Position numbers and translations under genes: made by a program
Part shown: positions 1-5,386 of the stretch, piece after piece
Position numbering within the stretch: position 1 is the stretch's first letter
Layout of the letters: each line of letters begins with the position of its first letter
Source of the DNA: Escherichia phage phiX174
Sequence record: EF380029.1
Direction: 5' to 3' (one strand)
DNA: 5,386 nucleotides
The notes under the pieces: generated by a model
The model's database searches: none
Seen by the model: the letters and a program-made list of their open reading frames with translations, nothing else
Told to the model about the DNA's origin: nothing

Positions 1-51
1 GAGTTTTATCGCTTCCATGACGCAGAAGTTAACACTTTCGGATATTTCTGA
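1..51 (+). CDS. B: Internal scaffolding protein B, C-terminal segment; continues from 5075..5386 across the junction, stop TGA 49-51
   Basis: Reading GAG TTT TAT CGC TTC CAT GAC GCA GAA GTT AAC ACT TTC GGA TAT TTC TGA gives [16 protein letters not shown], the known B C-terminus; the stop overlaps the K start (TGATG, 49-53). Confidence 0.9.
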
Positions 52-136
52 TGAGTCGAAAAATTATCTTGATAAAGCAGGAATTACTACTGCTTGTTTA
101 CGAATTAAATCGAAGTGGACTGCTGGCGGAAAATGA
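1..136 (+). CDS. A: Replication initiation protein A, C-terminal segment; the ORF enters from 3981..5386 across the circular junction (codon 5385-5386+1) and stops at TGA 134-136
   Basis: Frame continuous with the open frame running from ATG 3981 to the window end; translation matches the phiX174 A C-terminus (...[31 protein letters not shown]); stop overlaps the C start as ATGA (133-136). Confidence 0.9.
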
Positions 137-221
137 GAAAATTCGACCTATCCTTGCGCAGCTCGAGAAGCTCTTACTTTGCGACCTTTCGCCATCAACT
201 AACGATTCTGTCAAAAACTGA
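51..221 (+). CDS. K: Protein K (small accessory protein, 56 aa), overlapping the end of A and the start of C
   Basis: ATG at 51, stop TGA 219-221; hand translation [56 protein letters not shown] matches phiX174 K. Missing from the ORF track, probably because it is below the length cutoff. Confidence 0.85.
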
Positions 222-369
222 CGCGTTGGATGAGGAGAAGTGGCTTAATATGCTTGGCACGTTCGTCAAGGACTGGTTTAGATATGAGTCACATTTTGTT
301 CATGGTAGAGATTCTCTTGTTGACATTTTAAAAGAGCGTGGATTATTATCTGAGTCCGATGTTGTTTAA
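133..369 (+). CDS. C: Protein C (DNA maturation/packaging switch), 78 aa in this copy; truncated relative to the 86-aa reference by an in-frame TAA at 367-369
   Basis: ATG at 133 inside the track ORF 115..369 (which starts at an upstream GTG); translation [78 protein letters not shown] matches phiX174 C up to residue 76. Confidence 0.85.
320..349 (+). promoter_or_regulatory. Promoter for the D-E-J-F-G-H transcript, inside gene C: -35 TTGACA (320-325), 18-nt spacer, -10 TATTAT (344-349)
   Basis: Consensus -35 hexamer and a near-consensus -10 at appropriate spacing, at the position of the known phiX174 D promoter (transcript start near 358). Confidence 0.6.
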
Positions 370-389
370 CCATTAATAGGTAAGAAATC

Positions 390-848
390 ATGAGTCAAGT
401 TATTGAACAATCCGTACGTTTCCAGACTGCTTTGGCCTCTATTAAGCTCATTCAGGTTTCTGCCGTTTTGGATTTAACCGAAGATGATTTCGATTTTCTG
501 ACGAGTAACAAAGTTTGGATTGCTACTGACCGCTCTCGTGCTCGTCGCTGCGTTGAGGCTTGCGTTTATGGTACGCTGGACTTTGTGGGATACCCTCGCT
601 TTCCTGCTCCTGTTGAGTTTATTGCTGCCGTCATTGCTTATTATGTTCATCCCGTCAACATTCAAACGGCCTGTCTCATCATGGAAGGCGCTGAATTTAC
701 GGAAAACATTATTAATGGCGTCGAGCGTCCGGTTAAAGCCGCTGAATTGTTCGCGTTTACCTTGCGTGTACGCGCAGGAAACATTGACGTTCTTACTGAT
801 GCAGAAGAAAACGTGCGTCAAAAATTACGTGCAGAAGGAGTGATGTAA
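390..848 (+). CDS. D: External scaffolding protein D (152 aa)
   Basis: Track ORF 390..848; translation MSQVIEQSVRFQTALASIKLIQVSAVLDL...RAEGVM matches phiX174 D apart from a few substitutions (T5I, A23V, T132I versus my recollection); stop TAA 846-848 overlaps the J start (TAATG). Confidence 0.95.
   Translation: MSQVIEQSVRFQTALASIKLIQVSAVLDLTEDDFDFLTSNKVWIATDRSRARRCVEACVYGTLDFVGYPRFPAPVEFIAAVIAYYVHPVNIQTACLIMEGAEFTENIINGVERPVKAAELFAFTLRVRAGNIDVLTDAEENVRQKLRAEGVM
568..843 (+). CDS. E: Lysis protein E (91 aa, MraY inhibitor), fully embedded in D in the +1 frame
   Basis: ATG at 568 (internal Met of the TTG-initiated track ORF 520..843) preceded by GAGG at 555-558; translation MVRWTLWDTLAFLLLLSLLLPSLLIMFIPSTFKRPVSSWKALNLRKTLLMASSVRLKPLNCSRLPCVYAQETLTFLLMQKKTCVKNYVQKE matches phiX174 E with two C-terminal substitutions. 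Confidence 0.9.
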   Translation: MVRWTLWDTLAFLLLLSLLLPSLLIMFIPSTFKRPVSSWKALNLRKTLLMASSVRLKPLNCSRLPCVYAQETLTFLLMQKKTCVKNYVQKE

Positions 849-964
849 TGTCTAAAGGTAAAAAACGTTCTGGTGCTCGCCCTGGTCGTCCGCAGCCGTT
901 GCGAGGTACTAAAGGCAAGCGTAAAGGCGCTCGTCTTTGGTATGTAGGTGGTCAACAATTTTAA
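848..964 (+). CDS. J: Small basic DNA-binding/packaging protein J (38 aa)
   Basis: ATG 848 with AAGGAG at 835-840; hand translation MSKGKKRSGARPGRPQPLRGTKGKRKGARLWYVGGQQF*, stop TAA 962-964. Too short to appear in the ORF track. Confidence 0.9.
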   Translation: MSKGKKRSGARPGRPQPLRGTKGKRKGARLWYVGGQQF

Positions 965-968
965 TTGC

Positions 969-984
969 AGGGGCTTCGGCCCCT
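969..984 (+). terminator. J-F intergenic hairpin (AGGGGC-TTCG-GCCCCT), the partial terminator / mRNA-stabilising stem after gene J
   Basis: Perfect 6-bp GC-rich stem with a TTCG tetraloop immediately after the J stop; no strong U-tract follows, consistent with partial read-through into F. Confidence 0.6.
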
Positions 985-1000
985 TACTTGAGGATAAATT

Positions 1001-2284
1001 ATGTCTAATATTCAAATTGGCGCCGAGCGTATGCCGCATGACCTTTCCCATCTTGGCTTCCTTGCTGGTCAGATTGGTCGTCTTATTACCATTTCAACTA
1101 CTCCGGTTATCGCTGGCGATTCCTTCGAGATGGACGCCGTTGGCGCTCTTCGTCTTTCTCCATTGCGTCGTGGCCTTGCTATTGACTCTACTGTAGACAT
1201 TTTTACTTTTTATGTCCCTCATCGTCACGTTTATGGTGAACAGTGGATTAAGTTCATGAAGGATGGTGTTAATGCCACTCCTCTCCCGACTGTTAACACT
1301 GCTGGTTATATTGACCATGCCGCTTTTCTTGGCACGATTAACCCTGATACCAATAAAATCCCTAAGCATTTGTTTCAGGGTTATTTGAATATCTATAACA
1401 ACTATTTTAAAGCGCCGTGGATGCCTGGCCGTACTGAGGCTAACCCTAATGAGCTTAATGAAGATGATGCTCGTTATGGTTTCCGTTGCTGCCATCTCAA
1501 AAACATTTGGACTGCTCCGCTTCCTCCTGAGACTGAGCTTTCTCGTCAAATGACGACTTCTACCACATCTATTGACATTATGGGTCTGCAAGCTGCTTAT
1601 GCTAATTTTCATACTGACCAAGAACGTGATTACTTCATGCAGCGTTATCGTGATGTTATTTCTTCATTTGGAGGTAAAACCTCTTATGACGCTGACAACC
1701 GTCCTTTACTTGTCATGCGCTCTAATTTCTGGGCATCTGGCTATGATGTTGATGGAACTGACCAAACGTCGTTAGGCCAGTTTTCTGGTCGTGTTCAACA
1801 GACCTATAAACATTCTGTGCCGCGTTTCTTTGTTCCTGAGCATGGCACTATGTTTACTCTTGCGCTTGTTCGTTTTCCGCCTACTGCGACTAAAGAGATT
1901 CAGTACCTTAACGCTAAAGGTGCTTTGACTTATACCGATATTGCTGGCGACCCTGTTTTGTATGGCAATTTGCCGCCGCGTGAAATTTCTATGAAGGATG
2001 TTTTCCGTTCTGGTGATTCGTCTAAGAAGTTTAAGATTGCTGAGGGTCAGTGGTATCGTTATGCGCCTTCGTATGTTTCTCCTGTTTATCACCTTCTTGA
2101 AGGTTTCCCATTCATTCAGGAACCGCCTTCTGGTGATTTGCAAGAACGCGTACTTATTCGCCACCATGATTATGACCAGTGTTTCCAGTCCGTTCAGTTG
2201 TTGCAGTGGAATAGTCAGGTTAAATTTAATGTGACCGTTTATCGCAATCTGCCGACCACTCGCGATTCAATCATGACTTCGTGA
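1001..2284 (+). CDS. F: Major capsid protein F (427 codons)
   Basis: Track ORF 1001..2284; GAGG at 990-993; translation MSNIQIGAERMPHDLSHLGFLAGQIGRLITISTTPVIAGDSFEMD... matches phiX174 F with about 8 scattered substitutions. Confidence 0.95.
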   Translation: MSNIQIGAERMPHDLSHLGFLAGQIGRLITISTTPVIAGDSFEMDAVGALRLSPLRRGLAIDSTVDIFTFYVPHRHVYGEQWIKFMKDGVNATPLPTVNTAGYIDHAAFLGTINPDTNKIPKHLFQGYLNIYNNYFKAPWMPGRTEANPNELNEDDARYGFRCCHLKNIWTAPLPPETELSRQMTTSTTSIDIMGLQAAYANFHTDQERDYFMQRYRDVISSFGGKTSYDADNRPLLVMRSNFWASGYDVDGTDQTSLGQFSGRVQQTYKHSVPRFFVPEHGTMFTLALVRFPPTATKEIQYLNAKGALTYTDIAGDPVLYGNLPPREISMKDVFRSGDSSKKFKIAEGQWYRYAPSYVSPVYHLLEGFPFIQEPPSGDLQERVLIRHHDYDQCFQSVQLLQWNSQVKFNVTVYRNLPTTRDSIMTS

Positions 2285-2310
2285 TAAAAGATTGAGTGTG
2301 AGGTTATAAC

Positions 2311-2342
2311 GCCGAAGCGGTAAAAATTTTAATTTTTGCCGC
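2311..2342 (+). other. F-G intergenic structured region: candidate PriA (n') primosome assembly site for complementary-strand synthesis, possibly also a post-F terminator
   Basis: GCGGTAAAAATT (2317-2328) pairs with AATTTTTGCCGC (2331-2342) around a TT loop (12 bp, one G-T/U wobble); a small CCG-AAG-CGG stem sits at 2312-2320. The PAS is known to lie in the phiX174 F-G intergenic space. Confidence 0.5.
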
Positions 2343-2394
2343 TGAGGGGTTGACCAAGCGAAGCGCGGTAGGTTTTCTGCTTAGGAGTTTAATC

Positions 2395-2922
2395 ATGTTT
2401 CAGACTTTTATTTCTCGTCATAATTCAAACTTTTTTTCTGATAAGCTGGTTCTCACTTCTGTTACTCCAGCTTCTTCGGCACCTGTTTTACAGACACCTA
2501 AAGTTACATCGTCAACGTTATATTTTGATAGTTTGACGGTTAATGCTGGTAATGGTGGTTTTCTTCATTGCATTCAGATGGATACATCTGTCAACGCCGC
2601 TAATCAGGTTGTTTCTGTTGGTGCTGATATTGCTTTTGATGCCGACCCTAAATTTTTTGCCTGTTTGGTTCGCTTTGAGTCTTCTTCGGTTCCGACTACC
2701 CTCCCGACTGCCTATGATGTTTATCCTTTGGATGGTCGCCATGATGGTGGTTATTATACCGTCAAGGACTGTGTGACTATTGACGTTCTTCCCCGTACGT
2801 CGGGCAATAATGTTTATGTTGGTTTCATGGTTTGGTCTAACTTTACCGCTACTAAATGTCGCGGATTGGTTTCGCTGAATCAGGTTATTAAAGAGATTAT
2901 TTGTCTCCAGCCACTTAAGTGA
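2395..2922 (+). CDS. G: Major spike protein G (175 aa)
   Basis: ATG 2395 (Met 16 of the TTG-initiated track ORF 2350..2922) with AGGAG at 2383-2387; translation [63 protein letters not shown]... matches phiX174 G; stop TGA 2920-2922. Confidence 0.95.
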
Positions 2923-2930
2923 GGTGATTT

Positions 2931-3917
2931 ATGTTTGGTGCTATTGCTGGCGGTATTGCTTCTGCTCTTGCTGGTGGCGCCATGTCTAAATTGTTTGGAG
3001 GTGGTCAAAAAGCCGCCTCCGGTGGTATTCAAGGTGATGTGCTTGCTACCGATAGCAATACTGTAGGCATGGGTGATGCTGGTATTAAATCTGCTATTCA
3101 AGGCTCTAATGTTCCTAACTATGATGAGGTCGCCCCTAATTTTGTTTCTGGTGCTATGGCTAAAGCTGGTAAAGGACATCTTGAAGGTACGTTGCAGGCT
3201 GGCACTTCTGCCGTTTCTGATAAGTTGCTTGATTTGGTTGGACTTGGTGGCAAGTCTGCCGCTGATAAAGGAAAGGATACTCGTGATTATCTTGCTGCTG
3301 CATTTCCTGAGCTTAATGCTTGGGAGCGTGCTGGTGCTAATGCTTCCTCTGCTGGTATGGTTGACGCCGGATTTGAGAATCAAAAAGAGCTTACTAAAAT
3401 GCAACTGGACAATCAGAAAGAGATTGCCGAGATGCAAAATGAGACTCAAAAAGAGATTGCTGGCATTCAGTCGGTGACTTCACGCCAGAATACGAAAGAC
3501 CAGGTATATGCACAAAATGAGATGCTTGCTTATCAACAGAAGGAGTCTACTGCTCGTGTTGCGTCTATTATGGAAAACACCAATCTTTCCAAGCAACAGC
3601 AGGTTTCCGAGATTATGCGCCAAATGCTTACTCAAGCTCAAACGGCTGGTCAGTATTTTACCAATGACCAAATTAAAGAAATGACTCGCAAGGTTAGTGC
3701 TGAGGTTGACTTAGTTCATCAGCAAACGCAGAATCAGCGGTATGGCTCTTCTCATATTGGCGCTACTGCAAAGGATATTTCTAATGTCGTCACTGATGCT
3801 GCTTCTGGTGTGGTTGATATTTTTCATGGTATTGATAAAGCTGTTGCCGATACTTGGAACAATTTCTGGAAAGACGGTAAAGCTGATGGTATTGGCTCTA
3901 ATTTGTCTAGGAAATAA
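2931..3917 (+). CDS. H: Minor spike / DNA pilot protein H (328 aa) with glycine-rich N-terminal hydrophobic segment and C-terminal coiled coil
   Basis: Track ORF 2931..3917; GAGG at 2921-2924; translation [32 protein letters not shown]... matches phiX174 H with about 7 substitutions; stop TAA 3915-3917. Confidence 0.95.
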
Positions 3918-3926
3918 CCGTCAGGA

Positions 3927-3950
3927 TTGACACCCTCCCAATTGTATGTT
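3927..3950 (+). promoter_or_regulatory. Candidate gene A promoter in the H-A intergenic region: TTGACA (3927-3932) and TATGTT (3945-3950)
   Basis: Perfect -35 hexamer just after the H stop, but the spacer to the best -10-like hexamer is only 12 nt, so the exact elements are uncertain. Confidence 0.35.
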
Positions 3951-3955
3951 TTCAT

Positions 3956-3980
3956 GCCTCCAAATCTTGGAGGCTTTTTT
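3956..3980 (+). terminator. Intrinsic terminator after gene H: stem GCCTCCAA / TTGGAGGC with ATC loop, followed by T6; the 3' arm contains the gene A Shine-Dalgarno GGAGG
   Basis: Perfect 8-bp inverted repeat 3956-3963 / 3967-3974 directly followed by TTTTTT (3975-3980), ending one base before the A ATG. Confidence 0.7.
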
Positions 3981-5386
3981 ATGGTTCGTTCTTATTATCC
4001 TTCTGAATGTCACGCTGATTATTTTTACTTTGAGCGTATCGAGGCTCTTAAACCTGCTATTGAGGCTTGTGGCATTTCTACTCTTTCTCAATCCCCAATG
4101 CTTGGCTTCCATAAGCAGATGGATAACCGCATCAAGCTCTTGGAAGAGATTCTGTCTTTTCGTATGCAGGGTGTTGAGTTCGATAATGGTGATATGTATG
4201 TTGACGGCCATAAGGCTGCTTCTGACGTTCGTGATGAGTTTGTATCTGTTACTGAGAAGTTAATGGATGAATTGGCACAATGCTACAATGTGCTCCCCCA
4301 ACTTGATATTAATAACACTATAGACCACTGCCCCGAAGGGGACGAAAAATGGTTTTTAGAGAACGAGAAGACGGTTACGCAGTTTTGCCGCAAGCTGGCT
4401 GCTGAACGCCCTCTTAAGGATATTCGCGATGAGTATAATTACCCCAAAAAGAAAGGTATTAAGGATGAGTGTTCAAGATTGCTGGAGGCTTCCACTATGA
4501 AATCGCGTAGAGGTTTTACTATTCAGCGTTTGATGAATGCAATGCGACAGGCTCATGCTGATGGTTGGTTTATCGTTTTTGATACTCTTACGTTGGCTGA
4601 CGACCGATTAGAGGCGTTTTATGATAATCCCAATGCTTTGCGTGATTATTTTCGTGATATTGGTCGTATGGTTCTTGCTGCCGAGGGTCGCAAGGTTAAT
4701 GATTCACACGCCGACTGCTATCAGTATTTTTGTGTGCCTGAGTATGGTACAGCTAATGGTCGTCTTCATTTCCATGCGGTGCACTTTATGCGGACACTTC
4801 CTACAGGTAGCGTTGACCCTAATTTTGGTCGTCGGGTACGTAATCGCCGCCAGTTAAATAGCTTGCAAAATATGTGGCCTTATGGTTACAGTATGCCCAT
4901 CGCAGTTCGCTATACGCAGGACGCTTTTTCACGTTCTGGTTGGTTGTGGCCTGTTGATGCTAAAGGTGAGCCGCTTAAAGCTACCAGTTATATGGCTGTT
5001 GGTTTCTATGTGGCTAAATACGTTAACAAAAAGTCAGATATGGACCTTGCTGCTAAAGGTCTAGGAGCTAAAGAATGGAACAACTCACTAAAAACCAAGC
5101 TGTCGTTACTTCCCAAGAAGCTGTTCAGAATCAGAATGAGTCGCAACTTCGGGATGAAAATGCTCACAATGACAAATCTGTCCACGGAGTGCTTAATCCA
5201 ACTTACCAAGCTGGGTTACGACGCGACGCCGTTCAACCAGATATTGAAGCAGAACGCAAAAAGAGAGATGAGATTGAGGCTGGGAAAAGTTACTGTAGCC
5301 GACGTTTTGGCGGCGCAACCTGTGACGACAAATCTGCTCAAATTTATGCGCGCTTCGATAAAAATGATTGGCGTATCCAACCTGCA
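3981..5386 (+). CDS. A: Replication initiation protein A (rolling-circle nickase), N-terminal and central segment; continues across the junction to 1..136
   Basis: ATG 3981 with GGAGG at 3969-3973; MVRSYYPSECHADYF... matches phiX174 A. No complete ORF is listed in this frame (0 mod 3) from 3981 to the window end, consistent with an open frame that only terminates after wrapping. Contains the + origin at 4299-4328. Confidence 0.9.
   Translation, partial: MVRSYYPSECHADYFYFERIEALKPAIEACGISTLSQSPMLGFHKQMDNRIKLLEEILSFRMQGVEFDNGDMYVDGHKAASDVRDEFVSVTEKLMDELAQCYNVLPQLDINNTIDHCPEGDEKWFLENEKTVTQFCRKLAAERPLKDIRDEYNYPKKKGIKDECSRLLEASTMKSRRGFTIQRLMNAMRQAHADGWFIVFDTLTLADDRLEAFYDNPNALRDYFRDIGRMVLAAEGRKVNDSHADCYQYFCVPEYGTANGRLHFHAVHFMRTLPTGSVDPNFGRRVRNRRQLNSLQNMWPYGYSMPIAVRYTQDAFSRSGWLWPVDAKGEPLKATSYMAVGFYVAKYVNKKSDMDLAAKGLGAKEWNNSLKTKLSLLPKKLFRIRMSRNFGMKMLTMTNLSTECLIQLTKLGYDATPFNQILKQNAKREMRLRLGKVTVADVLAAQPVTTNLLKFMRASIKMIGVSNL
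4299..4328 (+). other. Viral (+) strand origin of rolling-circle replication; protein A nick site between G4305 and A4306
   Basis: Exact 30-mer CAACTTGATATTAATAACACTATAGACCAC, identical to the phiX174 origin core as I recall it, inside gene A; followed by a small CCCC-GAA-GGGG hairpin at 4331-4341. Confidence 0.85.
4497..5386 (+). CDS. A*: A* protein: in-frame internal translation start within gene A (continues to 1..136)
   Basis: ATG 4497-4499 in the A frame, preceded by GGAGG at 4484-4488 at about 8 nt spacing; this is the established position of the A* start in phiX174. Confidence 0.75.
   Translation, partial: MKSRRGFTIQRLMNAMRQAHADGWFIVFDTLTLADDRLEAFYDNPNALRDYFRDIGRMVLAAEGRKVNDSHADCYQYFCVPEYGTANGRLHFHAVHFMRTLPTGSVDPNFGRRVRNRRQLNSLQNMWPYGYSMPIAVRYTQDAFSRSGWLWPVDAKGEPLKATSYMAVGFYVAKYVNKKSDMDLAAKGLGAKEWNNSLKTKLSLLPKKLFRIRMSRNFGMKMLTMTNLSTECLIQLTKLGYDATPFNQILKQNAKREMRLRLGKVTVADVLAAQPVTTNLLKFMRASIKMIGVSNL
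4863..4891 (+). promoter_or_regulatory. Candidate gene B promoter inside gene A: TTGCAA (4863-4868), 17-nt spacer, TACAGT (4886-4891)
   Basis: Sigma-70-like hexamers with canonical spacing about 185 nt upstream of the B start, in the region where the phiX174 B promoter is reported; assigned by eye only. Confidence 0.3.
5075..5386 (+). CDS. B: Internal scaffolding protein B, N-terminal segment, embedded in gene A in a different frame; continues to 1..51
   Basis: ATG 5075 with AGGAG at 5063-5067; translation MEQLTKNQAVVTSQEAVQNQNESQLRDENAHNDKSVHGVLNPTYQAGLRRDAVQPDIEAERKKRDEIEAGKSYCSRRFGGATCDDKSAQIYARFDKNDWRIQPA... matches phiX174 B (A11V and P23S versus my recollection). Confidence 0.9.
   Translation, partial: MEQLTKNQAVVTSQEAVQNQNESQLRDENAHNDKSVHGVLNPTYQAGLRRDAVQPDIEAERKKRDEIEAGKSYCSRRFGGATCDDKSAQIYARFDKNDWRIQPA

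Follow-up and report, generated by a model that had tools for sequence, protein, structure and literature searches.

The window, the whole stretch of 5386 nt that was analysed, is a full-length circular phiX174 genome, collinear with the reference NC_001422/J02482 (100% coverage, 98.8% identity) and 99.4% identical to EF380021. It differs from the reference by 63 substitutions and no indels; on the viral strand, 49 of these substitutions read C>T. The reading frames A, A*, B, K, D, E, J, F, G, and H of the reference set are free of internal stops, and gene C is 8 codons shorter, ending in a TAA at positions 367-369, as it does in the laboratory ancestor AP100. The C>T excess arises from hydroxylamine mutagenesis of virions in the experiment of Silander et al. 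2007 (PMC1845161), and 89% of the substitutions in the lines of Silander, Tenaillon & Chao 2007 (EF380009-EF380032) were C>T (PMC1845161). We compared the window with these lines. Isolate 100C90 has 35 substitutions, 33 of which recur in the window, and further changes are common to the window, 250A55, and 250C55. The window and 100C90 differ at 32 positions, 28 of them by C>T, in line with the reported 89%. No record of the phage collection matches the window exactly; it is probably EF380029, which is absent from that collection. These shared changes indicate that the window is, by its sequence, a member of the hydroxylamine lines of that study, apparently derived from AP100/100C90 clones.

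We then searched the window for the exact string GATC and found 0 copies on either strand, and 0 again when the window was read as a circle. The preliminary description had reported this absence by eye, and no site had been missed. It had also put the expected number at roughly 20 and proposed a comparison with Markov models. Base composition gave an expectation of 19.9 copies. The first-order Markov expectation was 18.9, and the maximal-order model, calculated from the window counts of GAT (105), ATC (56), and AT (400), gave 14.7 with z = -4.81. Dinucleotide-preserving shuffles of the window contained 18.25 +/- 4.2 GATC, while simulated sequences contained 18.9 +/- 4.2 (minimum 6) under the first-order and 14.9 +/- 3.8 (minimum 2) under the second-order model. 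Of 3000 simulated sequences, not one was free of GATC, and the Poisson probability of zero ranged from 4e-7 to 2e-9. The related words GATT, GATG, and GATA, described earlier as numerous, occurred 37, 37, and 31 times.

GATC was the only absent tetramer among the 256, and its z was also the most negative. Joint depletion of several palindromic restriction sites was looked for in the window, and GATC alone was significantly depleted. The remaining 15 palindromic tetramers had z values from -2.2 to +0.06, with weak deficits of CTAG (2 vs 5.3 expected) and TATA (12 vs 19.4 expected), and general avoidance of palindromes or restriction sites was rejected on these values.

The contribution of coding sequence was assessed by permuting synonymous codons, at unchanged proteins and codon usage, over the 1433 codons that are singly coded. 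The 5000 permutations yielded 12.3 +/- 2.3 GATC with a minimum of 4, indicating that coding constraints are not the cause of the absence. When Asp preceded a codon starting with C, it was encoded by GAC in 16 of 16 cases, compared with 74 GAT and 30 GAC elsewhere (Fisher p = 3e-8). Similarly, the Ile codon ATC was used in 0 of 17 cases after a codon ending in G, against 16 of 76 otherwise (p = 0.04), and Ser TCN in 0 of 2 cases after xGA, against 118 of 136 otherwise (p = 0.02). These results show that avoidance in coding DNA is achieved by synonymous choice, namely GAC before C, an Ile codon other than ATC after G, and AGY Ser after xGA.

GATC counts were also obtained for other phages. Thirty Bullavirinae or related loci contained 0-7 GATC where 14-22 were expected (z = -3.2 to -5.8), and the depletion was common to all phiX174-, G4-, and alpha3-like phages examined; in ID1, the NC5 group, S13, and ID34, which are phiX174-like phages from nature, there are 1-2 sites. 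A Vibrio microvirus had 0 GATC (16 expected) and M13 had 3 (17 expected). In contrast, Chlamydia phage Chp2 (22 found, 22.5 expected) and Bdellovibrio phage phiMH2K (16 found, 14.4 expected) were not depleted, and three distant environmental microviruses had counts at expectation. By the presumed Dam status of their hosts, the relatives on Dam+ hosts are depleted and those on Dam-lacking hosts are not. The factor common to Escherichia, Salmonella, and Vibrio hosts is Dam/MutH/SeqA and not any single restriction enzyme. Since Dam, MutH, and SeqA occur together in the same bacteria, the comparative data cannot separate the three as the agent.

The preliminary description had further stressed that the absence was kept despite many C>T changes. 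This is true of the window, but it does not amount to evidence for selection. GACC is a one-step precursor of GATC and occurs 22 times in the ancestor, and the observed spectrum of 63 substitutions predicts 1.15 new GATC (P(0) = 0.32-0.33). When a higher synonymous rate was allowed for, 1.05-1.78 new sites were expected (P(0) = 0.35-0.17). That the window stayed GATC-free through 63 substitutions, most of them C>T, is what neutrality predicts, and it should not be taken for a sign of ongoing selection. Moreover, sister lines did gain GATC from GACC, namely 3B90, 10A90 (two sites), 10B90, and 30A90 (two sites), and these 6 events compare with 6.9 expected under neutrality at bottlenecks of 30 or fewer (Table 1). 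GACC>GATC is the commonest route to GATC under C>T bias, and it was seen to happen. One or more GATC occur in at least 29 phiX174-like records of the phage collection; the survey, made with 270 concatenated 41-mers, gives a lower bound, as 10B90, whose GATC adjoins a second substitution, was missed by it, and some alignments spanned two neighbouring query segments, which made the exact site ambiguous.

Table 1. Positions in the window that bear on the gain, loss, or absence of GATC
Feature	Position	Strand	Observation
Whole phiX174 genome, GATC-free	1..5386	none	Exact search, expectations, and identity to phiX174 records
Reference GACC, here GACT	425..428	+	C>T at 428; precursor lost, not converted
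GACC (Asp GAC + C), gene D	528..531	+	Kept in window; GATC in 3B90 (EF380011)
GACC (Asp GAC + C), gene F	1313..1316	+	GATC in 10B90 (EF380014); probably also in EF380024/25, decoding ambiguous with a second site, 1265, in the same alignment
Reference GACC, here GGCC	1427..1430	+	A>G at 1428; change also in 100C90 and in another seven lines
GACC (Asp GAC + C), gene F	1616..1619	+	GATC in 10A90 and 30A90
GACC (Asp GAC + C), gene G	2644..2647	+	GATC in 30A90
GACC (Asp GAC + C), gene H	3666..3669	+	GATC in 10A90

Selection per GATC site is weak, and new sites fix at the neutral rate in laboratory lines that are small and bottlenecked. Six genomes came from bottlenecks of 100 or more; they had fixed no synonymous GACC>GATC change, where 3.55 were expected (P(0) = 0.029, counting distinct events). 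A direct comparison of lines with N <= 30 and N >= 100 gave P = 0.083, with a split that was chosen post hoc. We therefore put forward with little confidence that single GATC sites may be under weak, measurable selection, with a per-site cost of about 1/100 to 1/30 under mutagenic conditions; under mutagenesis, mismatches and lesions would activate MutH. A cost of this size is hard to square with the normal growth of an engineered phage carrying 20 GATC sites.

The absence of GATC from phiX174 is long known and published, and its confirmation in the window adds nothing new. The same calculation for phiX174 gave 20.18 expected sites and P = 1.7e-9 (Pereira-Gomez & Sanjuan 2015, PMC5014478), and Dam-site avoidance in enterobacteriophages goes back to McClelland 1985 and Deschavanne & Radman 1991, as cited in PMC5014478 and PMC5075021. 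The preliminary description had also named phiX174 as a phage known to be GATC-free, a trait usually attributed to counterselection by Dam methylation and MutH-directed mismatch repair. The literature bears this out in so far as Dam/MutHLS-linked counterselection is discussed there for this phage (PMC5014478, PMC5075021), but the link is a standard hypothesis, and the 20-GATC phage shows no growth defect.

The depletion is specific to GATC and is unexplained by composition, codon usage, or protein sequence, which supports selective avoidance. We consider it probable that the missing GATC reflects selectively maintained avoidance of a site common to the host Dam methylase, the MutH endonuclease, and SeqA. 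In the mechanism suggested by the literature, phiX174 replicative-form DNA would be made too quickly for full Dam methylation, and its GATC sites would then be unmethylated or hemimethylated on the wrong strand. MutH activated by MutS/MutL could nick or break such phage DNA, or direct repair wrongly, and the small cost of each site would be purged in huge natural populations. In the double-stranded replicative form of the phage, roughly one GATC site in two was found to be methylated (PMC5014478, PMC5075021), and lower phage yields in dam- mutH+ hosts are described in the cited passages of PMC5014478 and PMC5075021. Mutation pressure runs opposite to avoidance, with C>T turning GACC into GATC. 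Against avoidance, the 20-GATC phage matched the wild type in growth (8.68 against 8.11 per h; PMC5014478), and some engineered sites were without effect on the mutation rate, though they are absent from the wild type too (PMC5014478); GATC was gained at the neutral rate in the hydroxylamine lines with bottlenecks of 30 or fewer, and natural phiX174-like phages tolerate 1-2 sites.

Several other explanations were weighed against selective avoidance of the Dam/MutH/SeqA site. In one, a high mutation rate was favoured by second-order selection: GATC-free lineages would evade mismatch repair and both mutate and adapt more quickly, an indirect advantage that would account for the loss of the sites. 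Adding 7 or 20 GATC sites lowered the mutation rate of phiX174 8- to 50-fold, and this drop was reverted in repair-deficient cells (PMC5014478). We nevertheless regard this explanation as unlikely, since indirect selection on modifiers is weak, the stepwise loss of the final sites out of about 20 would add little escape, and the benefit is lost under stress (PMC5014478); near-total depletion in every relative, including M13, is not what it predicts. The agent could instead be another reader of GATC: SeqA would sequester hemimethylated sites, or Dam methylation itself would interfere with replication of the replicative form, with the action of gene A protein, with transcription, or with the packaging of single strands. 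The host correlation for such interference is identical to that for MutH, the effects of engineered sites are strongly position-dependent, notably close to the promoter of A and the terminator of H (PMC5014478), and an effect on replication or encapsidation was raised by Deschavanne & Radman, as quoted in PMC5014478. However, the 20-GATC phage grows normally, and no sequence feature sets this reading apart from the MutH model; we assign it a low probability.

Classical restriction avoidance, in which enzymes of natural hosts would cut phage DNA at GATC (MboI/DpnII-like enzymes acting on unmethylated and DpnI-like enzymes on methylated DNA), appears very unlikely. GATC is a palindromic type II site, phages often avoid the sites of host enzymes, and MboI cuts under-methylated replicative-form DNA in vitro (PMC5014478). 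However, the other 4-base palindromes of the window are not depleted, so the general signature is absent. The depletion is also uniform across Escherichia, Salmonella, and Vibrio phages, for which Dam/MutH/SeqA is the shared factor. The probability that no selection acted, and that chance, base composition, codon usage, protein sequence, or context-specific mutation bias produced the absence, is negligible. The sole relevant fact in its favour is that the genome is short and absolute counts are small, but the main mutation pressure, C>T, makes GATC from GACC and did so in lines under relaxed selection. Chance, composition, codon usage, and protein constraint were ruled out by the Poisson values given above and by the failure of any simulation or any of the 5000 permutations to reach zero.

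Without GATC, phiX174 cannot be mismatch-repaired, and GATC avoidance is the textbook reason why this phage, although copied by the accurate host polymerase, has a mutation rate about 1000 times that of E. coli, an escape from methyl-directed mismatch repair that experiments by others have documented. The GATC-free state is not absolute, with 1-2 sites in laboratory lines and wild relatives. As far as the cited accounts of enterobacteriophage Dam-site avoidance go, the phenomenon and the phage are the same, with zero sites against about 20 expected and mismatch-repair components blamed, and our counts for G4, alpha3, phiK, and M13 (0-3) fit the published pattern; the window differs in being laboratory-evolved and 63 substitutions away from the reference. 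Restriction-site avoidance is likewise the depletion by selection of a short palindrome of a host nuclease, partly through synonymous codons. Here, however, one palindrome alone is affected, the presumed nuclease is MutH, a mismatch-activated repair enzyme and not a restriction enzyme, and the cognate methylase is an orphan with a housekeeping role. Engineered phiX174 carrying GATC (Cuevas et al. 2011, as cited in PMC5014478 and PMC5075021; Pereira-Gomez & Sanjuan 2015, PMC5014478) shows the same short-term tolerance as the GATC-bearing sister lines. The engineered sites were designed, whereas the sites of 3B90, 10A90, 10B90, and 30A90 were spontaneous changes during hydroxylamine mutagenesis and became fixed under strong bottlenecks.

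GATC is the recognition site of the host Dam methylase, the MutH endonuclease and SeqA, and the preliminary description of the window reported that this tetranucleotide is absent and proposed an exact search and a Markov comparison as checks. We ran both, and the absence was borne out: GATC occurred on neither strand of the window nor across its circular junction, while 18.9 copies were expected under a first-order Markov model and 14.7 under a maximal-order model (z = -4.81). Base composition alone gave 19.9, matching the roughly 20 that had been anticipated. Dinucleotide-preserving shuffles of the window contained 18.25 ± 4.2 GATC, and the minimum in 3000 simulated chains each was 6 (first-order) and 2 (second-order). 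The depletion was specific to GATC, which alone among the 256 tetramers had a zero count and which also had the lowest z-score; the remaining 15 palindromic tetramers ranged from z = -2.2 to +0.06. The Poisson probability of a zero count was 4e-7 to 2e-9, confirming that the missing GATC lies far outside chance. GATA (31 vs 16.3, z = +4.6) and AATC (23 vs 14.8, z = +2.7) were over-represented, probably as a statistical mirror of GATC avoidance within the Markov expectation. GCCG was also high (31 vs 18.2, z = +4.2), and CTAG was low (2 vs 5.3).

We then permuted synonymous codons within genes, using the 1433 codons read in one frame only and keeping proteins and codon usage fixed. The permuted genes contained 12.3 ± 2.3 GATC, with a minimum of 4 in 5000 runs, compared with 0 observed. 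When the next codon started with C, Asp was encoded by GAC in 16 of 16 cases, whereas other contexts had 74 GAT and 30 GAC (Fisher p = 3e-8). After codons ending in G, Ile was never ATC (0/17 vs 16/76, p = 0.04), and after xGA codons Ser was never TCN (0/2 vs 118/136, p = 0.02), AGY being used instead. The signal rests on these three codon choices in GATC-forming contexts (Asp GAC, Ile non-ATC and Ser AGY). Together with the permutation, they indicate that the depletion is independent of coding constraint and targets the DNA word itself, not the proteins.

The depletion extended across the clade. G4, WA2, FL76, alpha3, phiK, ID32, ID1 and 18 Bullavirinae contigs from IMG/VR carried 0-7 GATC vs 14-22 expected (z = -3.2 to -5.8). 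No GATC occurred in a Vibrio microvirus, against 16 expected, and M13, an unrelated ssDNA coliphage, carried 3 vs 17. Chlamydia phage Chp2, with 22 GATC vs 22.5, and Bdellovibrio phage phiMH2K, with 16 vs 14.4, were at expectation, as were three distant microviruses from the environment (32, 19 and 19); Spiroplasma phage SpV4 was intermediate (4 vs 10.9, z = -2.5). To our knowledge, Dam, MutH and SeqA are restricted to enterobacteria and vibrios together with related gammaproteobacteria, and GATC depletion thus follows hosts that read GATC. Two environmental microvirus contigs from IMG/VR were clearly depleted (L031, 3 vs 18; L033, 7 vs 20), and L034-L036, which neighboured them among the search hits, showed no depletion. 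The observed/expected GATC ratio might indicate the host of uncultured microviruses.

The zero count, its expectation and the proposed cause are all already known. Pereira-Gomez and Sanjuan (Virus Evol 2015, PMC5014478) made the same calculation (20.18 GATC expected, P = 1.7e-9) and concluded that the forces responsible for it "remain unclear". As cited there, Deschavanne and Radman (1991) argued for MutH-dependent counterselection from a lower phage yield in dam- mutH+ hosts, and a review (PMC5075021) restates both explanations of the avoidance. We regard counterselection linked to host Dam/MutHLS as the probable cause, the identity of the selective agent being what we infer. The preliminary description made the same attribution, which is the standard explanation in the literature (PMC5014478, PMC5075021) but is unproven. 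Fast phage replication would leave GATC in phage DNA under-methylated, and such sites would be exposed to MutH nicking or misdirected repair; in the dsDNA replicative form of the phage, methylation was found at about half of the GATC sites (PMC5014478). Each site would then carry a small cost that large natural populations could purge, and mismatch-repair escape and a high mutation rate would be consequences of GATC loss.

The same study bears on second-order selection favouring a high mutation rate. The phiX174 mutation rate fell 7.7-fold once 20 GATC had been introduced, and by up to 50-fold with some intergenic sites, while some GATC sites left it unaffected; the growth rate of the 20-GATC phage did not change significantly (8.68 vs 8.11 per h; PMC5014478). 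We consider this selection an unlikely origin of the absence. Interference of SeqA or Dam with replication or packaging appears somewhat less likely still. MutH, Dam and SeqA co-occur, which prevents comparative sequence data from telling them apart. Natural hosts with GATC-specific restriction are an improbable source, and the absence of any selection is hardly credible. We retain Dam/MutHLS-linked counterselection as the preferred reading.

The reference NC_001422 and the window are GATC-free, but this is not an absolute trait of phiX174 as a species. A survey with 270 concatenated 41-mers, with a single GATC-creating change in every one, matched at least 29 phiX174-like records, a lower bound, including DQ079885, DQ079888, DQ079889, DQ079891, M14428, AF274751, DQ079882 and DQ079887. 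Wild isolates NC5, NC16, NC37, NC51, S13, ID34 and NC11 had at least one GATC, and ID1 had two, at 1949 and 5366. The Bull/Wichman laboratory lines (AF2993xx/HM775306) had a common GATC through T>C at 2018, and four further lines of the Silander experiment were matched.

The window is a complete phiX174 genome of 5386 nt in standard orientation and origin, and 161 phage records aligned with it over its full length. Its identity was 98.8% to NC_001422/J02482, from which it differed by 63 substitutions and no indels, and 99.4% to EF380021, EF380028 and EF380030. The closest records fell within EF380009-EF380032, the lines of Silander, Tenaillon and Chao (PLoS Biol 2007, PMC1845161), in which virions were exposed to 250 mM hydroxylamine at each transfer and C>T made up 89% of substitutions. 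On the viral strand, C>T accounted for 49 of the 63 window substitutions and G>A for only 4. Given this kinship, the many C>T changes noted in the preliminary description are a chemical-mutagenesis signature, and their asymmetry reflects hydroxylamine acting on single-stranded virion DNA. The substitutions comprised 29 synonymous, 33 non-synonymous and 1 non-coding. The window descends from 100C90 (EF380021), sharing 33 of its 35 substitutions, and no entry of the phage collection is identical to it. Changes at 1609, 2504, 3178, 3189, 3998 and 4873 were common to the window, 250A55 and 250C55; population 100c founded the latter two. EF380029, whose number falls between those of 250A55 and 250C55, has no entry in that collection, and the window is probably this record, perhaps isolate 250B55. 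Substitutions clustered at 1648-1650 (C>T at 1648, A>G at 1650) and 3120-3121 (C>T, then C>A), each cluster including at least one change inherited from 100C90.

The absence had also been presented as retained despite many C>T changes. NC_001422 contains 270 tetramers one substitution from GATC, including 22 GACC, where 15 of the 22 changes are synonymous. Randomising the 63 substitutions by type created a mean of 1.15 GATC; P(0) was 0.32 when calculated analytically, and 20,000 simulations gave 0.33. With a higher synonymous-site rate, 1.78 were expected relative to the reference (P(0) = 0.17) and 1.05 relative to 100C90 (P(0) = 0.35). Since P(0) is 0.17-0.35, the GATC-free state is the neutral prediction and the argument is uninformative; it is also contradicted by sister lines that gained GATC.

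GATC gains in sister lines of the hydroxylamine experiment
Line	Accession	Genome label	Position	Change
3B90	EF380011	L039	528	synonymous GAC>GAT before C
10A90	EF380013	L041	1616, 3666	synonymous GAC>GAT before C
10B90	EF380014	L042	1313	synonymous GAC>GAT before C
30A90		L044	1616, 2644	synonymous GAC>GAT before C

Every gain affected an Asp codon, one site was hit in two lines, and the 6 gains in nine sister lines compared with a class-aware neutral expectation of 6.9, in keeping with weak selection under laboratory conditions. All six arose where the bottleneck was ≤30 plaques. With bottlenecks of 100 or 250, the six genomes, window included, contained 0 GATC vs 4.16 expected, or 3.55 (P(0) = 0.029) when substitutions common to the three 250-lines were counted once. 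A direct test of six out of six events in the small-population group gave 0.66^6 = 0.083, with the split (≤30 vs ≥100) chosen post hoc on data already seen. This weakly hints at selection against GATC in the laboratory lines, a lead and not a result.

Two gene truncations were also observed. C>T at 367 converts CAA to TAA (367-369) in the window, shortening gene C by 8 codons (133-369 vs 133-393); the same TAA occurred in AP100 (EF380009), the laboratory ancestor, and in every Silander line compared, where C is annotated 133..369. In the small-population line 10A90, gene K is annotated 51..161 instead of 51..221, likely a nonsense mutation fixed by drift.
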